In this document: positions 1 to 8,034 of the stretch, one piece after another | Layout of the letters: each line of letters begins with the position of its first letter | Position numbering within the stretch: the stretch's first letter is position 1 | Source of the DNA: an uncultured bacterium | GTDB lineage: Bacteria; Hydrogenedentota; Hydrogenedentia; Hydrogenedentales; JAEUWI01 | Length of the DNA: 30,032 bases | Reading direction: 5' to 3' | Assembly: GCA_963977445.1 (NCBI GenBank) | Contig: CAXBPH010000061.1 | Location: forward strand, 1 to 30,032 | Translations under genes and position numbers: made by a program | Notes under the pieces: generated by a model | The model's input: only the letters and a program-made list of their open reading frames with translations | Database searches by the model: none | Told to the model about the DNA's origin: nothing

Positions 1-54
1 TTCACCTTCACCTTCACCTTCACCTTCACCTTCACCTTCACCTTCACCTTCACC
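1..54 (-). repeat. Perfect hexamer tandem repeat (TTCACC)x9, encoding a (Gly-Glu)n linker on the minus strand; truncated by the window edge
   Basis: Positions 1-54 are nine exact TTCACC copies, in frame with the minus-strand CDS starting at 1125 (...LLTPLAGEGEGEGE). Confidence 0.97.
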
Positions 55-1125
55 GGCAAGGGGCGTCAAAAGAGCTTCACCGAAATTTGCAGACACGGGG
101 ACGCACCAGATACTGAGATAGGTGATCGTGGAGAGGTCAACACCACTGGGCACAGGAAACTGTAACGTCTCATTCACATAGGGCTCAGCACGTCGGAGAT
201 CGTCGGAGAGATTGACGCCCTCGGTGAGAGTCTCGTCGGCAAATCCGTAGAGGTGAACGTCGATCCCTGTTCCGTCAAAATTAAAGTTCTCGATTTCAAT
301 GGTGCAATTGTCGACGATGCGGGCCGTACCCGTGACTTCATGGAATCGGGTTGTAAATTCTCCCGATGCGCCCACATAGGCGTTGTCCGTTCCGCAATCC
401 TTCGTCGGTATTTCAAGGGCAATCTGGATGCGCGCCGCGTTGTTCGTTTCGTCTGACTCAAGAATATGATTGGCCGGGTCTACCTGAATTTCGAGCCAGT
501 AGGTGCCGGATTCGAGGTCAGTCACGTCGATCCACTGAAATTCCAGATTCTGAGAATAGATATCGGTCCAGCCGACGGAGATGCCGTGATTCCCACCATT
601 GGCCTGGAATCCGGACGCCGGACGACCGGGAAGGGAACTGTCATAGATGGCGGAGCTGGTTATGCGGACCGCAGGCTTTGCGCCAGTAGCGAGCACCTCA
701 CCGACGCCCTCATTCGGTAGAATTTCGCGGATGTTGTAGGCAACCCATCCCTCGGCTTCCATCATGAAAATAGACGGGTTGTAGAGGAAGTCACCGGCAT
801 CCCGGGTTCTTGGGTCGCCGACTTCCTGCTCGATTACCTGATTTACGGTTTGTCGCCCATTACCGCCATCTTCCCCGGTAGATGCGAGGAGAAAGGGGCC
901 TGCACCAATATTGGGCAGGGAAGAATTGAAGCGCAGCAGGGCTTTTCCCGGAATATGCTCTGTATCAAGTCGATTGGTATTCAGGGCCGTCGGGTCCACG
1001 ATCAGGTCGGGAAGGAGATCCTGTCCAAAGGCGCTTGTGCTGAGGCAGAGCAACACGAGGGCAGTAAGGGCTCGTCGGAGGGTTGTAGCGGGGATTAATG
1101 TGGTGAAGACGGAAGTGGTACTCAT
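1..1125 (-). CDS. Secreted multidomain protein, 3'-truncated: signal peptide + lysyl oxidase-like domain (no Cu-His motif) + DM13 domain + (EG)n linker
   Basis: Hand translation from ATG 1125-1123 (RBS GAGGT just upstream) is stop-free to position 1 (375 codons). Signal peptide: MSTTSVFTTLIPATTLRRALTALVLLCLSTSAFG. LOX motifs: LLPDL, LLRFNSSLPNIGAGP, GISVGWTDIY, QWIDVTDLESGTYWL, VDPANHILESDETNN. DM13 motifs: GEFTTRFHEVTGTARIVD, IENFNFDGTGIDVHLY, LSIWCVPVSANFGEALL. Confidence 0.9.
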   Translation of the reverse strand, partial: MSTTSVFTTLIPATTLRRALTALVLLCLSTSAFGQDLLPDLIVDPTALNTNRLDTEHIPGKALLRFNSSLPNIGAGPFLLASTGEDGGNGRQTVNQVIEQEVGDPRTRDAGDFLYNPSIFMMEAEGWVAYNIREILPNEGVGEVLATGAKPAVRITSSAIYDSSLPGRPASGFQANGGNHGISVGWTDIYSQNLEFQWIDVTDLESGTYWLEIQVDPANHILESDETNNAARIQIALEIPTKDCGTDNAYVGASGEFTTRFHEVTGTARIVDNCTIEIENFNFDGTGIDVHLYGFADETLTEGVNLSDDLRRAEPYVNETLQFPVPSGVDLSTITYLSIWCVPVSANFGEALLTPLAGEGEGEGEGEGEGEGEGE

Positions 1126-1159
1126 AGCTTTACCTCGATGGTGCCCGTTGAATTCTACT

Positions 1160-1179
1160 GCAGTCACTATAGCAAGTGC
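1160..1179 (-). promoter_or_regulatory. Putative extended -10 (TGnTAnnnT) promoter element of the LOX-DM13 gene
   Basis: Minus strand reads GCACTTGCTATAGTGACTGC (TG-C-TATAGT), with the hexamer about 40 nt upstream of the ATG. It is 17/20 identical to 14377-14396. Confidence 0.55.
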
Positions 1180-1256
1180 CGTTGTTTGTGGCAACCGGTA
1201 ATGGGTCACTGCAAACCAGCGGCCATTACTTTTGCGGCCTCTACGGAAGCGTTAGA

Positions 1257-2165
1257 CTACTTGATTTCATGGAGCCCTTCGGTCATCACGTAGTGGTGCT
1301 CAATGGGCAGCTTTTCCATCCATTCCCGTACGGCGAGGGTCTTCCATGGACCGGAACCCTTCCCGCCGCCATTGTCGTTGTCCCAGAGCCACAGCGGGGT
1401 GGGCCAGAGGCAATAGCGGGCCCCAACGTGTTCGTAGAAGGCCTCGCTTACGCCGGCCTGACCGTGGTGGGCCATTTGGATGTAGTCCGCGTGAATTCGG
1501 TCGGAAAAGGGGCCTTTTAAGGCCTTATCGCCCCCTTCAACACCGAGATCGCCCGTGAAGAGGACGGATTTTTCGCTGTCAGAAATTCGAACGATAATAC
1601 TGGAGTTATTGACGCCGTTGGGGAGGATTTCGGGGTTCTTTGCGCCCAATACTTCGATTTGGACGCCGTCGATCTCCATTTCCTGACCGGGTGTGAGTTC
1701 CTCTACCATGCGATCGGCCGTTTTAAGGGTGTCGACGAACCAATGGTAGACTTTCTGCTCGCCCTCCGAGCCGTGTTGGTCTATCCATTCGCCACCGAGG
1801 AAGGAGCCAAAGATAGGCCCGATTTTCAATGCGCCAGGGGCTTTGACGAGCTCGCACAGGGCACTGAGGTGGTCGGAGTGGGGGTGGCTGATAAACCACG
1901 CGGCGACGTCGTTGCCCTGGGCTTCAAGAAACTTGGCGAGGTAGGGCGCGTCACCCACGTTGCCCCCGTCGACGACGATGAGTTTACCGTTGGGGGTCTT
2001 TATGACATACGACATCATCTGTGTTGGCGTTTGATTCGGAAGTTGCCACAAGGTGAATTTGGTCGGTCCCGTTGGCGAACTCGGTGTTGGGTTTTCGGCG
2101 GGGGATAGGGCGCAGAGGGCGATCGCCAGGGTCAACAAAAGCCCACGAAAAGACGAAATTATCAT
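1257..2165 (-). CDS. Secreted MBL-fold metallo-hydrolase (ComEC/Rec2-like C-terminal domain)
   Basis: Motifs SHPHSDH (HxHxDH), VVDGG, NNSSII, LFTGD and AHHG. A hydrophobic signal peptide follows Met at 2165; the ORF track starts at 2225. Confidence 0.85.
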   Translation of the reverse strand: MIISSFRGLLLTLAIALCALSPAENPTPSSPTGPTKFTLWQLPNQTPTQMMSYVIKTPNGKLIVVDGGNVGDAPYLAKFLEAQGNDVAAWFISHPHSDHLSALCELVKAPGALKIGPIFGSFLGGEWIDQHGSEGEQKVYHWFVDTLKTADRMVEELTPGQEMEIDGVQIEVLGAKNPEILPNGVNNSSIIVRISDSEKSVLFTGDLGVEGGDKALKGPFSDRIHADYIQMAHHGQAGVSEAFYEHVGARYCLWPTPLWLWDNDNGGGKGSGPWKTLAVREWMEKLPIEHHYVMTEGLHEIK

Positions 2166-3117: not shown

Positions 3118-4569
3118 TCAGGCGAGCAAGTCGTGTATTACGTTGCCATGCACGTCGGTGAGACGCATGTCCCGGCCACTGTAGCGATAGGTCAACTTGG
3201 TGTGGTCAAAACCGAGGAGATGAAGCATGGTCGCGTGGAGATCATGTATTTCCACGCGATTCTCCACGGCCTTGTATCCAAATTCATCGGTAGCGCCATA
3301 GACGATGCCCGGTTTGGTGCCCCCACCGGCCATCCAGATGGTAAAGCCGAAGGGGTTGTGATCCCGGCCGACGGTACCCTGGGCGAAGGGGGTGCGGCCG
3401 AATTCACCGGCCCATATCACCAGCGTCTCTTCCAGCAGTCCCCGGGACTTGAGATCTTTCAAGAGTCCGGCGATAGGCTGATCGACGGCCTTGGCGTTCA
3501 ACTCGTGATTGCTTACCAAATCACCGTGGGCATCCCAGCGGTCCTGGCCTTCGATGGGGGGGCAGGTCAGCTCGACAAATCGAACACCCCGCTCCACGAG
3601 CCGTCGGGCCAGCAGACACTGCATGCCATAGGAACGGGTATGTTCATACTCGGCTTCCATACCATAGAGTTTCTTGGTGGCATCGCTTTCGCCGGTGATG
3701 TCGACGAGCTCCGGCACCGCGACTTGCATGTGGTAAGCGAGCTCGTAATTGGAGATGGCTGCCTCCAGAGCGTCGTGGTGGCCCCGATACTTCATGGCGT
3801 TGGCGTCCAACTGCCCCACGAGATCCAGGAGGGGCTGTTGGGTCCCGGGAACCGATTCGGCAGGGGCGATGTTGGCCAGGGGATGTTCCTGCGCTTTCAG
3901 CAGGGAGGCCTGGTAGGCGGCGGGCAGGAAACCGTTGCCAAAGTTTTCTACGCCACCCGATGGGATGAGCCCGCCGTTGAGTACCACGAAGCCGGGCAGG
4001 TTCTGGCTTTCGCTGCCAAGTCCATACATGGACCAGGCACCCATGGAGGGACGTCCGACTTGACTGTGGCCCGTATGCAGAAAATAATTGGCCTGATTGT
4101 GTTCAGAAAAATTGGAAACCATGGACCGAATGATGGTCAGGTCATCGACGCAGCCACCGACATGGGGGAAAAGGTCGGATACGGGCGTGCCACTCTGGCC
4201 ATAATTCTTGAAGGCCCAGGGGCTTCCCAGGGTGGAGCCGTTGTTGTCAAACTGGGTGGGCTCCATCGTCATGGAAAAGGGCTTGCCGTTGTCCTGCGTA
4301 AGGCGTGGCTTCGGGTCAAAGCTATCCACCTGGGAAACGCCGCCATCCATATAGAGGAAAATAACGTTCTTGGCTTTCGCGGGGAAATGGGGCATGCCCG
4401 ACGACGTGGTAAGCGAGTCCACCGCGCCAAAAGCCTTATCGCCGAGAAGGGCACTGAGGGCTACTGCGCCAAATCCATTGGCACAGCGTTGCAGCATGGC
4501 CCGACGACTCAGGGGGGCGGGGGAGACGTGTTGGCTACATCCACAACCGGGCTGTTGTTGCTTACTCAT
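3118..4569 (-). CDS. DUF1501 domain protein (Tat-exported, sulfatase-like fold)
   Basis: SRRAML twin-arginine leader; AKNVIFLYMDGGVSQVDSFDPKP, CLLARRLVERGVRFVEL, WDAH, GEFGRTP, GRDHNP, DLHATMLHLLG. Confidence 0.93.
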   Translation of the reverse strand: MSKQQQPGCGCSQHVSPAPLSRRAMLQRCANGFGAVALSALLGDKAFGAVDSLTTSSGMPHFPAKAKNVIFLYMDGGVSQVDSFDPKPRLTQDNGKPFSMTMEPTQFDNNGSTLGSPWAFKNYGQSGTPVSDLFPHVGGCVDDLTIIRSMVSNFSEHNQANYFLHTGHSQVGRPSMGAWSMYGLGSESQNLPGFVVLNGGLIPSGGVENFGNGFLPAAYQASLLKAQEHPLANIAPAESVPGTQQPLLDLVGQLDANAMKYRGHHDALEAAISNYELAYHMQVAVPELVDITGESDATKKLYGMEAEYEHTRSYGMQCLLARRLVERGVRFVELTCPPIEGQDRWDAHGDLVSNHELNAKAVDQPIAGLLKDLKSRGLLEETLVIWAGEFGRTPFAQGTVGRDHNPFGFTIWMAGGGTKPGIVYGATDEFGYKAVENRVEIHDLHATMLHLLGFDHTKLTYRYSGRDMRLTDVHGNVIHDLLA

Positions 4570-4641
4570 GGCAAACTCTCCATATACTTCGAGTGACAGA
4601 CTGTCGTCAGCGGCATTCCGCGACGGGCAAAATCGTCACAC

Positions 4642-7600
4642 TTATCCAATGTAGATAAATTCTTTCAACATGAAAACGGTGTGGCAGAGGTCGGCCAAAA
4701 TCCGACTGTCCTGCCATGCATCGGCCTCGGGAACGTCATAAAGATGGGCCTGAGCCGCTACAAACTGGGACAGGGTATTGCGCTCTTCGTCCCGGGGGAA
4801 GCGCGCCAATGCAATTTCGAAAAGCCTGTCGATGACGGCGTCAAAGTTCTCTGGTGCGTTACCCAGCAGTCGTTCGCTGAGGACGCGTGCCTGTTCCACC
4901 ACAAAGGCATCATTCATCATGATGAGGGCCTGGGCTGGCAGATTCGAAACGGTACGGTTGCCAATGGTTGTGTCGGGCACGGGCATATCGAAGGCCATGG
5001 CGATGGGCAGGAGGTGATTGCGCCTTACTTCGAGATAGACCGTGCGACGCCGGTCACCATCCATAGGGCCGGAGACCGAAGGACTGCGGCGATTACGCCC
5101 AAAGGGTGGGATGTACGCGGGCACGGACGGCCCATACATGGTTGTGTTCAGATTGCCCCCCAATGCCAGCAGACTATCCCGGATGGCCTCACCCTCAAGA
5201 CGCAGCACCGGCATGCGGTGAAGGAGTACATTGGCGGGATCCTGGGTCTCGGATTCCGGGGAAACGGGCACGCTGCTCATGCGATAGGTCTCCGTCAGCA
5301 TGAGCACCTTGATAAGGTCTTTGGTGGACCAGCCGTTTTCCATAAAACGGGTGGCCAGGTAATCCAGGAGTTCGGGGTGGGAGGGTCGTTGACCCAAGGC
5401 ACCAAAGTTGTCCGTCGATGGTACAAGTCCCGTGCCAAACAAATGATGCCAGACGCGATTGACGTAGACCCGCGACGTGAGGGGGTTGGCTGGGTTTACC
5501 ATTTTGTCGGCGAGGGCCAGCCGGTCGTTTGCCTCATTCAAGCCTTCGGGCGCGAGGGCTGTCAGGAAGGCACGCTCCACGGTGCCATCTGTATTTCGGT
5601 GATCACCACGGATGAAATAAAGAGCGTCTTCCGGGGTGCCCGCCGTAGCCACGAGGGCCTTCACGGGCCCGACGATTTCCTCGTCAGAGCTGTTCAAGGC
5701 GACCCGCATCTCTTCCCGTCGCGCTACCGTATCGGCAGGCCACCAGAGTCCGCGCCGGAGCAGCAGTGCGGTCCAGGGATTTTCCGCGCGCAACGGTGCC
5801 GTCTCATTCTGTTTCCAGGCTGCTCGGAATACGCCTTCCAGACGAAGGGCGAGGTCATCCATTAGCAGACTCTTGATGGTGATGCTTTCCCCAATCAGAT
5901 CGGCCTGTTGGAGGCCGTGGGCTGGTGGTGGGGTGGGGCTGTCGCTGAGGATGATTTCGTCCACCGCGATATAGCCATCGGACTCGTCGATCAATTCAAT
6001 GTAGGCTTCCCTGCCCCGATACTTGCCGACCTGCTTGCCCATGGTGATCCAGATAAAGGACCCATGGGTGTCGCCGGTGTCCCGCAGGGTGTCGCCAAAA
6101 AGCAGGCCATTGTCCGGGGTGAGTTGGTAACCGTCGATCACCAGACGCATCCGTGCGTTTCGCCCGGCCACCCGGAAGTGTATGTAGTCGCAATCGATGG
6201 TGAAGTTGGGCGAGCGAAGTATGCCCTGAAGGTGCTCGGAATCCAGCCCACTGTGTACCACACCAGCCTGGACGGGATAGAGTTCTCCCTGAATGGGCGT
6301 CCACGCCACGTCGTGTGTGGGCTCTTTGCCAAAGGCATCGCCCGAGGGAAACCAGCCCTCGAAGGTGCCATCATCAAAGGTGGCAAAGGTACGATTAGAT
6401 GGGTCGGGCACGACTTCCGGTGGACTGGTCGTTTCTACACCGAGTGCCCGCGCTCGTTCGAGGAATTGACGTGTGTTTACGGAGCGGGCGGACTGGGCAA
6501 GCTGATTCCAGACGAAGAGGGGGTGGCTGGGCAGATTTACTTCCGGTTCGACGAGCGCTGCACGCCACCGGCCGAGCAGATTGGCATCCAGGCCCAGTTC
6601 CTCGGCTACTTTTTCGATGGGACGGCCCACTGGCTTCGCCGCCTTCGGCTCCCCGTCCGCCTTGGCTTCCGGCATGGGTACGCCATCGCTCGGTTTTGGG
6701 GTGTCATAGATGGATTTGGCCGCGCCCATGAGATAGGGCGCGATGGGCTGGTCGTCGATCGCGGGGACACCGTCGATAGTGGCACGGATGGCGCGACGTT
6801 GTTCACGAAGGAGTGCCCGCCGGGTGAGGGTGCCGGAATGGATTTTCTGTCCGGGATCAAGAAAGGCAATGGACTGGCGCGCGCTATAGAGGTGGCCCGC
6901 CATCGCGTAGTAGTCCCGCGCGGAAATGGCGTCGAATTTATGATCGTGGCACCGTGCGCAGGATACGGTCATGCCGAGGAACGCTTTGGACATGACATCC
7001 AACTGGTTATCGACACGGTCGGCCTGGTCCTGTTGCACGTCCACGGGCGCGTGGGTTGCCTGGTGCATAAACCAGAAGCCCGTTGCGAGTATGGATTCGT
7101 TGTAGCCGTCTTCCGGATGGTGACGGGGGGATTCGAGCAAGTCACCGGCAATATGCTCCCGAACAAACTGGTCGTAGGGCACATCTTCGTTGATGGCGCG
7201 AATTACATAGTCACGATAGGTCCATGCGTGGCGAATGGGATAGTCGCCTTCATGACCATGGGTGTCAGAATAGCGGACCAGGTCAAACCAATGGCGACCC
7301 CAGCGCTCGCCATAGGCGTTGTCTGCCAGCAATTCATCCAATACCCGTTCATAGGCGTCGGGACGGGTGTCATTGACAAAGTCTTCCACCGCCTGCGGCG
7401 TGGGGGGCAGTCCCGTAATGGTGAAATAGGCGCGTCGAATTAAGGTGCGTCGATCCGTTTCGGGTGCGGTGGCCAGCCCTTGGGCCTCCCGAGGGGCTTG
7501 CAGAAACTGGTCGACGGGATTGCCCTGAAAACGAGCGTCTTCCACGGTGGGGGGCGTCGGGTCGGTGATCGGCTGCCAGGCCCAATGCTCATCACGTCGC

Positions 7601-8034
7601 TTCTCGAGGTCAAAATCCTCGACAGCACTTTTGTTTTCAGGAAGTGCTTCATCGGGCCAGGGCGCGCCACGGGTAATCCACTCCAGCAGCAGGGTCGCTG
7701 CCGCGTCGGGCATCTTGCCCTTGGGAGGCATCTGGAGGTCTACGTTGCCATAGCCGATGGCGATACCAATGCGGCTACCGGCCGGGTCGCCTGCAATCAG
7801 CGCAGGGCCCGAGTCACCGCCCGAAAGAATGGTCTGGATGTGGTCGAGGCGAAGGCCACCTTTCTGCTTTTCTGCGCCGTGGCAGTCGAAGCAATATTGG
7901 CTCAAAACAGGGCGAATCTTAGATTCGAAGAAAGCCAGGTCTTCAGGGGATGCCTTGGAGACCATTGATTCTGCGCTGCTCGTGGTGGCTATCAGACCCA
8001 GCGCGACGCTGCCGAGGAAATGGAAATACCGCAT
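4642..8034 (-). CDS. Planctomycete-type cytochrome c / DUF1549 / DUF1553 (PSD1) protein
   Basis: Signal peptide; FFESKIRPVLSQYCFDCH heme motif; HWAWQP, YGERWGRHWFDLVRY, CARCHDHKFD; NPLTSRVYVNRVWHHLFG, PSHPELLDYLA, RLEGEAIRD, PAQAL. It sits directly upstream of the DUF1501 gene, the usual pairing. Confidence 0.93.
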   Translation of the reverse strand: MRYFHFLGSVALGLIATTSSAESMVSKASPEDLAFFESKIRPVLSQYCFDCHGAEKQKGGLRLDHIQTILSGGDSGPALIAGDPAGSRIGIAIGYGNVDLQMPPKGKMPDAAATLLLEWITRGAPWPDEALPENKSAVEDFDLEKRRDEHWAWQPITDPTPPTVEDARFQGNPVDQFLQAPREAQGLATAPETDRRTLIRRAYFTITGLPPTPQAVEDFVNDTRPDAYERVLDELLADNAYGERWGRHWFDLVRYSDTHGHEGDYPIRHAWTYRDYVIRAINEDVPYDQFVREHIAGDLLESPRHHPEDGYNESILATGFWFMHQATHAPVDVQQDQADRVDNQLDVMSKAFLGMTVSCARCHDHKFDAISARDYYAMAGHLYSARQSIAFLDPGQKIHSGTLTRRALLREQRRAIRATIDGVPAIDDQPIAPYLMGAAKSIYDTPKPSDGVPMPEAKADGEPKAAKPVGRPIEKVAEELGLDANLLGRWRAALVEPEVNLPSHPLFVWNQLAQSARSVNTRQFLERARALGVETTSPPEVVPDPSNRTFATFDDGTFEGWFPSGDAFGKEPTHDVAWTPIQGELYPVQAGVVHSGLDSEHLQGILRSPNFTIDCDYIHFRVAGRNARMRLVIDGYQLTPDNGLLFGDTLRDTGDTHGSFIWITMGKQVGKYRGREAYIELIDESDGYIAVDEIILSDSPTPPPAHGLQQADLIGESITIKSLLMDDLALRLEGVFRAAWKQNETAPLRAENPWTALLLRRGLWWPADTVARREEMRVALNSSDEEIVGPVKALVATAGTPEDALYFIRGDHRNTDGTVERAFLTALAPEGLNEANDRLALADKMVNPANPLTSRVYVNRVWHHLFGTGLVPSTDNFGALGQRPSHPELLDYLATRFMENGWSTKDLIKVLMLTETYRMSSVPVSPESETQDPANVLLHRMPVLRLEGEAIRDSLLALGGNLNTTMYGPSVPAYIPPFGRNRRSPSVSGPMDGDRRRTVYLEVRRNHLLPIAMAFDMPVPDTTIGNRTVSNLPAQALIMMNDAFVVEQARVLSERLLGNAPENFDAVIDRLFEIALARFPRDEERNTLSQFVAAQAHLYDVPEADAWQDSRILADLCHTVFMLKEFIYIG

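Follow-up and report, generated by a model that had tools for sequence, protein, structure and literature searches.

Lysyl oxidases (LOX) pass electrons to O2, and no relay is required. Their activity requires three histidines together with the lysine and the tyrosine of the LTQ cofactor (PMC4448552, PMC5899467), and copper-site mutants of LOXL2 show neither quinone stain nor activity (PMC5899467). In LOXL2 the cofactor tyrosine, Y689, is surface-exposed and the lysine, K653, is mobile (PMC5899467, PMC9659206). The histidine-intact archaeal HTU-LOX is active and copper-dependent (PMC6452851), and the available text of the survey PMC4448552 predicts active prokaryotic LOX homologues and names one histidine-less exception, from a red alga. 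A LOX-like protein of the red algae Cyanidium caldarium and C. merolae lacks the histidine core and keeps the lysine and the tyrosine (PMC6508830, PMC4448552). The protein described here, P0001, shares with lysyl oxidase (PF01186; LOXL2, 5ZE3; HTU-LOX, PMC6452851) the fold, the calcium ligands, the LTQ lysine and tyrosine and secretion, but differs from it in that the copper histidines are lost and the equivalents of F656 and of the C657-C673 pair of LOXL2 are replaced, and in the addition of a DM13 domain, an (EG)n linker and, in orthologues, a membrane tail. Judged by its sequence, P0001 is a LOX-fold protein that falls outside the Cu/LTQ oxidases on its histidines. Like the Cyanidium/C. merolae protein, it has a secreted LOX-like domain with K and Y and without the histidine core, but the former is red-algal, single-domain and retains six cysteines. 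A histidine-less, K/Y-keeping LOX is already reported from red algae (PMC6508830).

DM13 (PF10517) is found in insect Knickkopf/Skeletor and in S. aureus SaeP, with which the present family shares the Pfam match, a predicted extracellular location and tandem copies beside a membrane anchor, whereas here the domain is without a DOMON partner, is joined to a LOX fold and has a Trp-Cys (W-C) cysteine that is dispensable in four of eight orthologues. A redox role for this conserved cysteine was reportedly proposed by Iyer in 2007. Electron transfer by DM13 is a prediction and not a demonstration (PMC4140639, PMC7189620).

The window, the whole 30,032-nt stretch of DNA analysed here, is the entire contig C61 of genome G000, and the contig end falls inside a Glu-Gly repeat. 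The gene is therefore open at its 3' end, which is probably why its frame was missed by the ORF track. The following features were placed at the locus:

1166..1194, minus strand: sigma-70-type promoter with extended -10 (TTGCCA, 17 nt, TG-n-TATAGT), predicted from 10/12 consensus matches
1132..1136, minus strand: Shine-Dalgarno-like GAGGT, 6 nt before ATG 1125, read from the sequence
1..1125, minus strand: 5' part of the CDS, protein P0001 (375 aa), cut by the contig end
1024..1125, minus strand: probable Sec signal peptide, aa 1-34 (basic residues, hydrophobic core at aa 18-33, small-residue end)
409..1023, minus strand: lysyl-oxidase-fold domain, aa 35-239, of the histidine-less clade (Pfam PF01186, model, 5ZE3 match, tree)
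736..789, minus strand: former copper hairpin, N116, I119, M121 and E123 where homologues have H..HxHxH (homologue alignment)
676..678, minus strand: K150, the equivalent of LTQ lysine K653 of LOXL2 (38/38 in the clade, 239/239 histidine-intact rows)
556..558, minus strand: Y190, the equivalent of LTQ tyrosine Y689 of LOXL2 (aligned directly to 5ZE3; 38/38 in the clade)
439..459, minus strand: calcium-site loop E223, D225, N228, N229, with D40-L41 at 1003-1008 (aligned to LOXL2)
58..396, minus strand: DM13 domain, aa 244-356, with a probable C244-C274 disulfide and W340-C341 (Pfam PF10517; SOD-like barrel in the predicted model)
1..51, minus strand: (Glu-Gly)n acidic linker at the assembly break, (GAAGGT)x8 at 4-51

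The hidden 375-codon frame reported in the initial annotation (window 1-1125, minus strand) is free of stops and is a real coding gene under strong purifying selection. Orthologues are present in all eight same-genus genomes, the LOX domain shows pN of 0.14-0.26 against pS of 0.65-0.83 in eight pairs with the window gene, and its dN/dS is ~0.02-0.1 where dS is measurable. Named relatives (L021-L023) are from Ca. Hydrogenedentota, at 57-75% identity, and an NCBIfam search with P0001 returned no match. Among sequencing runs, two DNA runs had small shares (0.11 and 0.07) and no RNA run was listed. In the scanned region, 0.6 promoters with 10/12 matches would be expected by chance. In 9/9 genus copies a TATAGT -10 box is found a short distance 5' of the likely start, with TG just upstream (TG-n, or G-n in G004). 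The Shine-Dalgarno-like GAGGT 3' of the promoter favours ATG 1125 over GTG 1209, which was rejected as a start since it lies upstream of the conserved promoter. As for the signal peptide of the initial annotation, the hydrophobic stretch at aa 18-33 is there, and its assignment to a Sec signal (aa 1-34) is probable.

The LOX-like domain that had been proposed is borne out by several comparisons. Pfam places Lysyl_oxidase (PF01186) at aa 175-237 (E 4.7e-16, 59.5 bits versus a cut-off of 20.4) and CARDB at aa 194-230 (E 3.1e-5), and human LOXL2 (5ZE3) is the only strong PDB sequence match (E 1e-8). An AlphaFold model of the LOX part (pLDDT 97.6, pTM 0.91) superimposes on 5ZE3 with Z 16.0 and rmsd 2.6 over 168 residues (VIA; next match Z 8.0), and Foldseek supports the LOX fold as well (E 1.1e-8). 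After LOXL2, the folds ranked next are CARDB and glycosidase Ig domains, and in the ESM Atlas the LOX part retrieved lysyl-oxidase clusters only. The calcium site corresponds to that of LOXL2 (ligands from PMC5899467), with D40, L41, E223, D225, N228 and N229 at D549/L550/E722/D724/N727/N728.

The earlier reading of an active Cu/LTQ matrix-modifying enzyme overlooked the loss of three copper histidines: H626/H628/H630 of LOXL2 are replaced by I119, M121 and E123, in a register set via 239 histidine-intact bacterial homologues and not by direct residue alignment to 5ZE3. We pooled 413 LOX-like matches, of which 376 were at least 150 aa long; 295 remained after a 90% redundancy filter and 294 could be aligned at five key positions. 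Three histidines were found in 239 of these, two in 3, one in 25 and none in 27, shares that come from searches seeded with P0001 and are not a census. Members with at most one histidine plus S157 were defined as the His-less clade, which makes the invariance of S157 circular; it comprises 38 non-redundant members with 35-89% pairwise identity and a tree length of 20.4 changes/site. On a quick maximum-likelihood tree (98/161 rows, every second histidine-intact row omitted; midpoint-rooted, no bootstrap), 27 His-less rows fall on one branch (SH-aLRT 96) among histidine-intact rows. Other histidine-poor rows fall elsewhere, which suggests that histidine loss occurred more than once, and these rows outside the clade also keep K (17/17) and Y (16/17). 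LOX-like proteins outside the Hydrogenedentota clade with partial or full histidine loss and retained K and Y include P0087, P0163, P0227, P0229, P0232, L055, L058, P0099, P0015 and L089, among them a single-histidine Planctomycetota group. In P0028 and P0099 the histidine-poor domain is fused to a glucose/sorbosone-dehydrogenase-type propeller (PF07995). Separately, about two dozen proteins (P0235-P0262), two of them named as Anaerolineales, are fusions of LOX with a metallo-beta-lactamase domain (PF13483), and in L130 (G109:C32) one TGA stop interrupts the LOX match, as a broken gene or a sequencing error.

Within the His-less clade K150, D188, Y190, E223 and N229 are kept in 38/38 members (D188 belonged to one search pattern used in gathering them), and K150 is the 8th slowest of 207 sites. 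Conversely, F153, C154, D157 and C175, each at least 90% conserved in histidine-intact rows, are replaced in the clade. Of the former ligand positions, 119 and 121 change at an average rate, ranking 145 and 132 among the 207 sites, and 123, at rank 64, is under moderate constraint; a fixed substitute ligand set is therefore lacking. Position 121 is H in 15 members, M in 10, R in 7, K in 3 and L in 2, i.e. H/M in 25/38; position 119 is variable, and position 123 is E/D/Q in 36/38. Newly conserved residues include M122 (35/38), T156 (32/38), S/T158 (38/38), N/D116 (36/38) and H180 (24/38), some of them among the slowest sites. The possibility that K150, N116 and E123 form an autocatalytic Lys-Asn isopeptide bond was set aside; N116 and E123 are not invariant.

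We favour, with modest confidence, a binding head without catalytic activity, carried by an anchored, modular stalk. The inactivity of LOXL2 copper-site mutants, the replaced histidine triad, the disappearance of F153 and C154/C175 and the lack of a conserved copper or redox partner gene beside it were counted for it, as was the histidine-less, K/Y-keeping precedent in Cyanidium and C. merolae. What counts against it is that K150 and Y190 never change along a tree length of 20.4, and that K/Y retention, seen also in the histidine-poor rows outside the clade, is surprising for residues with no known role other than giving rise to the cofactor. Because the LOXL2 equivalents of K150 and Y190 lie exposed or are mobile, which leaves no obvious reason for their invariance, the main rival is a surface amine-modifying enzyme with a rewired active site, in which a Lys-Tyr cross-link or quinone would arise via another metal site (E123, M/H121, H180, D188) or through a trans-acting modifying enzyme. 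The 38/38 retention of K150, D188 and Y190, the new conserved residues around the site and the low dN/dS of the LOX domain are what such an enzyme would lead one to expect; E/D/Q at 123 and H/M at 121 could still allow metal binding, and this too was counted against a binding head. A constant metal triad is lacking, however, with H, M, R, K or L at position 121 and a variable position 119, a conserved neighbouring modifying enzyme was not seen, and LOXL2 needs its copper site for cofactor formation (PMC5899467). We regard a rewired site as possible, though on balance doubtful.

The distribution of the genes bears on both of these explanations. PF01186 is matched in 40/135 genomes of the phylum, of which 17 are His-less, 21 histidine-intact and 2 unclassified (a second G046 copy was left out). 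LOX genes of either type are almost confined to genomes with a heme-copper-oxidase-superfamily gene (39/40 versus 74/135 overall, kin not being independent), which was counted for the rewired site. Heme-copper oxidases are encoded in 17/17 His-less genomes, so that the histidine loss cannot be put down to missing oxygen or to an absence of copper use; an adaptation to anoxia was rejected on the same count, and the loss being left without an oxygen or copper explanation weighs against the binding head. In favour of the binding head we counted that the same His-less LOX head is carried on interchangeable anchors: EG linker plus Cys tail, dockerin-like modules, TSP3-type repeats or Ig repeats. 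A duplicated dockerin-like, Cys-containing module, N- or C-terminal, occurs as an alternative anchor in L012, L015, L017, L018, L119, P0021, P0023 and P0033; in L012 and L119 it had no Pfam match.

Alternatively, K150 and Y190 might be structural and the LOX domain a calcium-stabilised Ig/CARDB-type surface-layer spacer without a specific ligand, i.e. a pure scaffold. This would accord with the CARDB and glycosidase Ig domains that come next after LOXL2 in fold comparisons, with the survival of K and Y through several apparently separate histidine losses and with the invariant calcium loop, but a spacer would hardly be expected to occur as a usually single domain at or near the N-terminal tip, or to be more conserved than the DM13 stalk (65-80% versus 40-68% identity within the genus). 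Moreover, in LOXL2, Y689 is surface-exposed and K653 mobile, and these are therefore not core residues. We consider a pure scaffold quite unlikely, and retain the binding head.

The DM13 domain named in the initial annotation is equally clear in Pfam (PF10517 at aa 256-352, E 1.6e-16, 61.2 bits versus a cut-off of 25). The extra Cys pair noted there is present (C244, C274) and probably forms a disulfide, but it is not special to this protein: P0056 has it too, as do most repeats of P0027 and P0164. The rarity of LOX+DM13 was upheld: the fusion is in 9/9 genus genomes and was found only in this genus. Among 263 LOX-bearing ORFs/proteins, 14 have both domains, all of genus type (genus-built profile; duplicates included), and PF10517 is absent from 120 listed (of 123) near-length and from 19 longer LOX matches. 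DM13 itself is present in 12/61 related genomes and outside the genus sits on non-LOX surface proteins; it occurs, too, on a propeller-type protein in G000, a LamG/beta-helix protein and two others, which was counted for the binding head. The DM13 of the propeller-type protein, the third copy in G000 (L108, G000:C340), is 84.5% identical to that of P0001, closer than any orthologous DM13 (at most 68%), and is its sister in the tree (99/96), which suggests recent copying, or gene conversion, from one surface protein to another. As separate observations, P0056 joins two DM13 copies to cytochrome c (DOMON apart, no other redox-domain partner was seen), and L116 (G011:C38) has DM13 followed by a short domain, unmatched in Pfam, with a Tyr-Gln-Cys-x2-His-x2-Met motif reminiscent of a cupredoxin-type copper site.

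The initial annotation had raised the possibility of a redox module in which DM13 would be the dedicated electron relay of an active Cu/LTQ oxidase. That all nine genus genomes keep the fusion, two of them and probably also G000 having DM13 twice, that the LTQ residues are present, that DM13 is predicted for electron transfer (PMC4140639, PMC7189620) and that a DM13 relative in P0056 is fused to cytochrome c would all be in keeping with it. The copper histidines are absent, however, with I/M/E in place of the triad, and the W-C cysteine, C341 in P0001, is present in four of eight orthologues and is D in the other four, L005-L008. DM13 was found neither in the His-less LOX proteins examined outside the genus nor in the histidine-intact ones examined; and LOX, handing its electrons to O2, has no need of a relay. 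The presence of DM13 on unrelated surface proteins, together with the cysteine missing in 4/8 orthologues, argues against an electron relay, and we hold the redox module to be very improbable. The other option of the initial annotation, a scaffold of two repurposed redox folds, is the one that fits best.

A structural lead came from the two-domain LOX-DM13 model (pLDDT 84.3, pTM 0.68). For model residues 212-323 the top VIA matches are all Cu/Zn-SOD or CCS chains (Z 5.9-8.5), with other folds at 5.5 or below; against SOD1/CCS/SOD5 the Z of 7.9-8.5 over ~100 residues stands at the tool's caution line, for a domain folded only within the two-domain model. With the Cu/Zn-SOD barrel and CCS domain II (3ecv, 6fp6, 4n3t, 1ej8) the DM13 model shares a superposition of Z up to 8.5 and rmsd ~3 over ~100 residues, but differs in its 5-15% identity, in the lack of profile similarity to SodC (profile-profile comparison from 5 loci, probability 0.3%) and in having one conserved histidine: of the two in the domain (262, 291), only 262 is invariant in the nine genus copies, and the Cu/Zn-SOD histidine set for Cu and Zn is not found. 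With PF10517 skipped, the ESM Atlas returned nothing above 0.76 for the DM13 part. Because the Z-scores sit at the caution line, come from a two-domain model and have no counterpart at the sequence level, a Cu/Zn-SOD-like barrel for DM13 is only a lead. DM13 as a CCS-like helper of SodC was rejected, SodC being in only 2/9 genus genomes and DM13 in all 9, and a LOX-DM13 complex prediction, which scored 0.00 both times and had no folded controls to compare with, was not counted as evidence.

The further domains suspected beyond the contig edge can be assigned provisionally by synteny. Eight complete orthologues have the order signal, LOX, DM13, (EG)n, optional second DM13 (2/8), EF-hand-like pair (7/8) and tail, the last consisting of Gly-Cys, a spacer, a usually Asp-led hydrophobic helix and often basic residues. 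Contig C244 of G000 opens within an EG repeat, after which come DM13, EF-hands and a Cys-bearing membrane tail. For the C-terminal half of the two closest named orthologues the best match (62-65%) lies on this contig, as do the best matches of the genes downstream of L021, L022, L023, L024, L004 and L009, with gene order preserved in the case of L021. From this synteny, and not from a bridged assembly, we infer that G000:C244 2-721 (plus strand) is the missing 3' part of the gene and that the full protein would have ~600 aa. The break itself lies in the (GAAGGT)x8 array at window 4-51, which encodes the (EG)n linker noted earlier; of 58 (GAAGGT)-type DNA repeats in G000, 32 are at contig ends.

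The tail is shared by other proteins of this genome. When 56,338 closed ORF ends were searched with a profile of 25 EG-linked tails, 26 matched at E<=0.01, four of which were not seeds, so that ~29 G000 proteins (e.g. on C9, C10, C122, C144, C169, C244, C340, C39 and C231) share the tail, which usually follows (EG)n and has a Cys-helix spacer of 10-18 aa. The Cys motif and hydrophobic helix are found in the eight full-length genus orthologues and on C244, and the basic end in most. Like the Cys-containing CTERM signals of myxosortase substrates (bioRxiv 10.1101/2023.06.07.544157), the orthologue tails combine a Cys with a hydrophobic helix and, in many cases, basic residues, but they match no NCBIfam model and have the 10-18-residue spacer; the NCBIfam sorting-signal models (MYXO-, JDVT-, Synerg- and CGP-CTERM) can miss short lineage-specific signals. 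The available text of that preprint does not mention Hydrogenedent-. The Gly-Cys/spacer/Asp-led helix/basic tail is a candidate for an undescribed Cys-CTERM sorting signal of Hydrogenedentota. PF02517 proteases are encoded by five genes in G000, and the family was also matched in 11/14 control genomes.

A survey of homologue neighbourhoods found conserved neighbours within the genus only. Upstream SDR, DUF1501 and PSD1/PSCyt genes are common to the genus loci, and in the window DUF1501, a PSCyt1/PSCyt2/PSD1 gene pair and SDR (3118-8034, minus strand) keep their synteny with the LOX gene in most of the genus. A secreted MBL-fold gene lies directly upstream in the window (1257-2162, minus strand) and in three orthologous loci; a functional link with this metallo-beta-lactamase-fold gene was rejected, as it adjoins in L002-L004 and is absent beside L005-L008. 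No neighbours were shared across genera (most flanks covering only 1.5 kb) and no conserved copper/redox partner or modifying enzyme was seen beside the LOX gene, whose neighbourhood looks like ordinary vertical synteny.

We propose that the gene, driven as a single unit from a putative sigma-70 promoter, encodes a Sec-exported cell-surface protein whose head would be a catalytically retired lysyl-oxidase fold used for binding. Without copper no LTQ would be expected to form, and the head would carry out no amine oxidation and release no H2O2, as LOX chemistry implies. The tail would anchor the protein, probably via Cys lipidation and cleavage as proposed for MYXO-/JDVT-CTERM, and DM13, (EG)n and the EF-hands could serve as a calcium-stiffened acidic spacer that holds the head away from the cell. 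The calcium-locked LOX fold would then present a remodelled, conserved and exposed patch (K150, Y190, D188, M122, T156, S157, W127) to a putative ligand, most plausibly a glycan, a matrix polymer or a partner protein. A bolder combination is that the His-less clade makes a Lys-Tyr cross-link or quinone without the copper-histidine site and, in this genus, displays it on a DM13 that is a metal-stripped Cu/Zn-SOD barrel. We think this unlikely; if true, it would be a surface protein built from two copper-enzyme folds, both without their copper ligands, and would offer a new route to LTQ-type chemistry along with a structural identity for DM13.

Titles and abstracts of mostly open-access literature gave no LOX+DM13 fusion, bacterial His-less clade or DM13-SOD link; the S7/S8 alignments of PMC4448552 and the supplements of bioRxiv 10.1101/2023.06.07.544157 may contain His-less bacterial rows and Hydrogenedentota tails, respectively. 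The LOX+DM13 fusion is a case of domain shuffling at genus level, of less consequence than the earlier reading held. A SOD-like fold is a separate lead for DM13, a domain of insect cuticle proteins and of S. aureus SaeP. Compact, cysteine-free and modelled at high confidence, the LOX domain is an attractive crystallisation target in a fold with one solved structure among the matches. For the family, the finding is that a bacterial clade with 38 or more non-redundant members, placed within histidine-intact relatives, has lost the copper site but never the cofactor lysine and tyrosine; the His-less clade is a natural experiment on the role of the LTQ lysine and tyrosine without copper.
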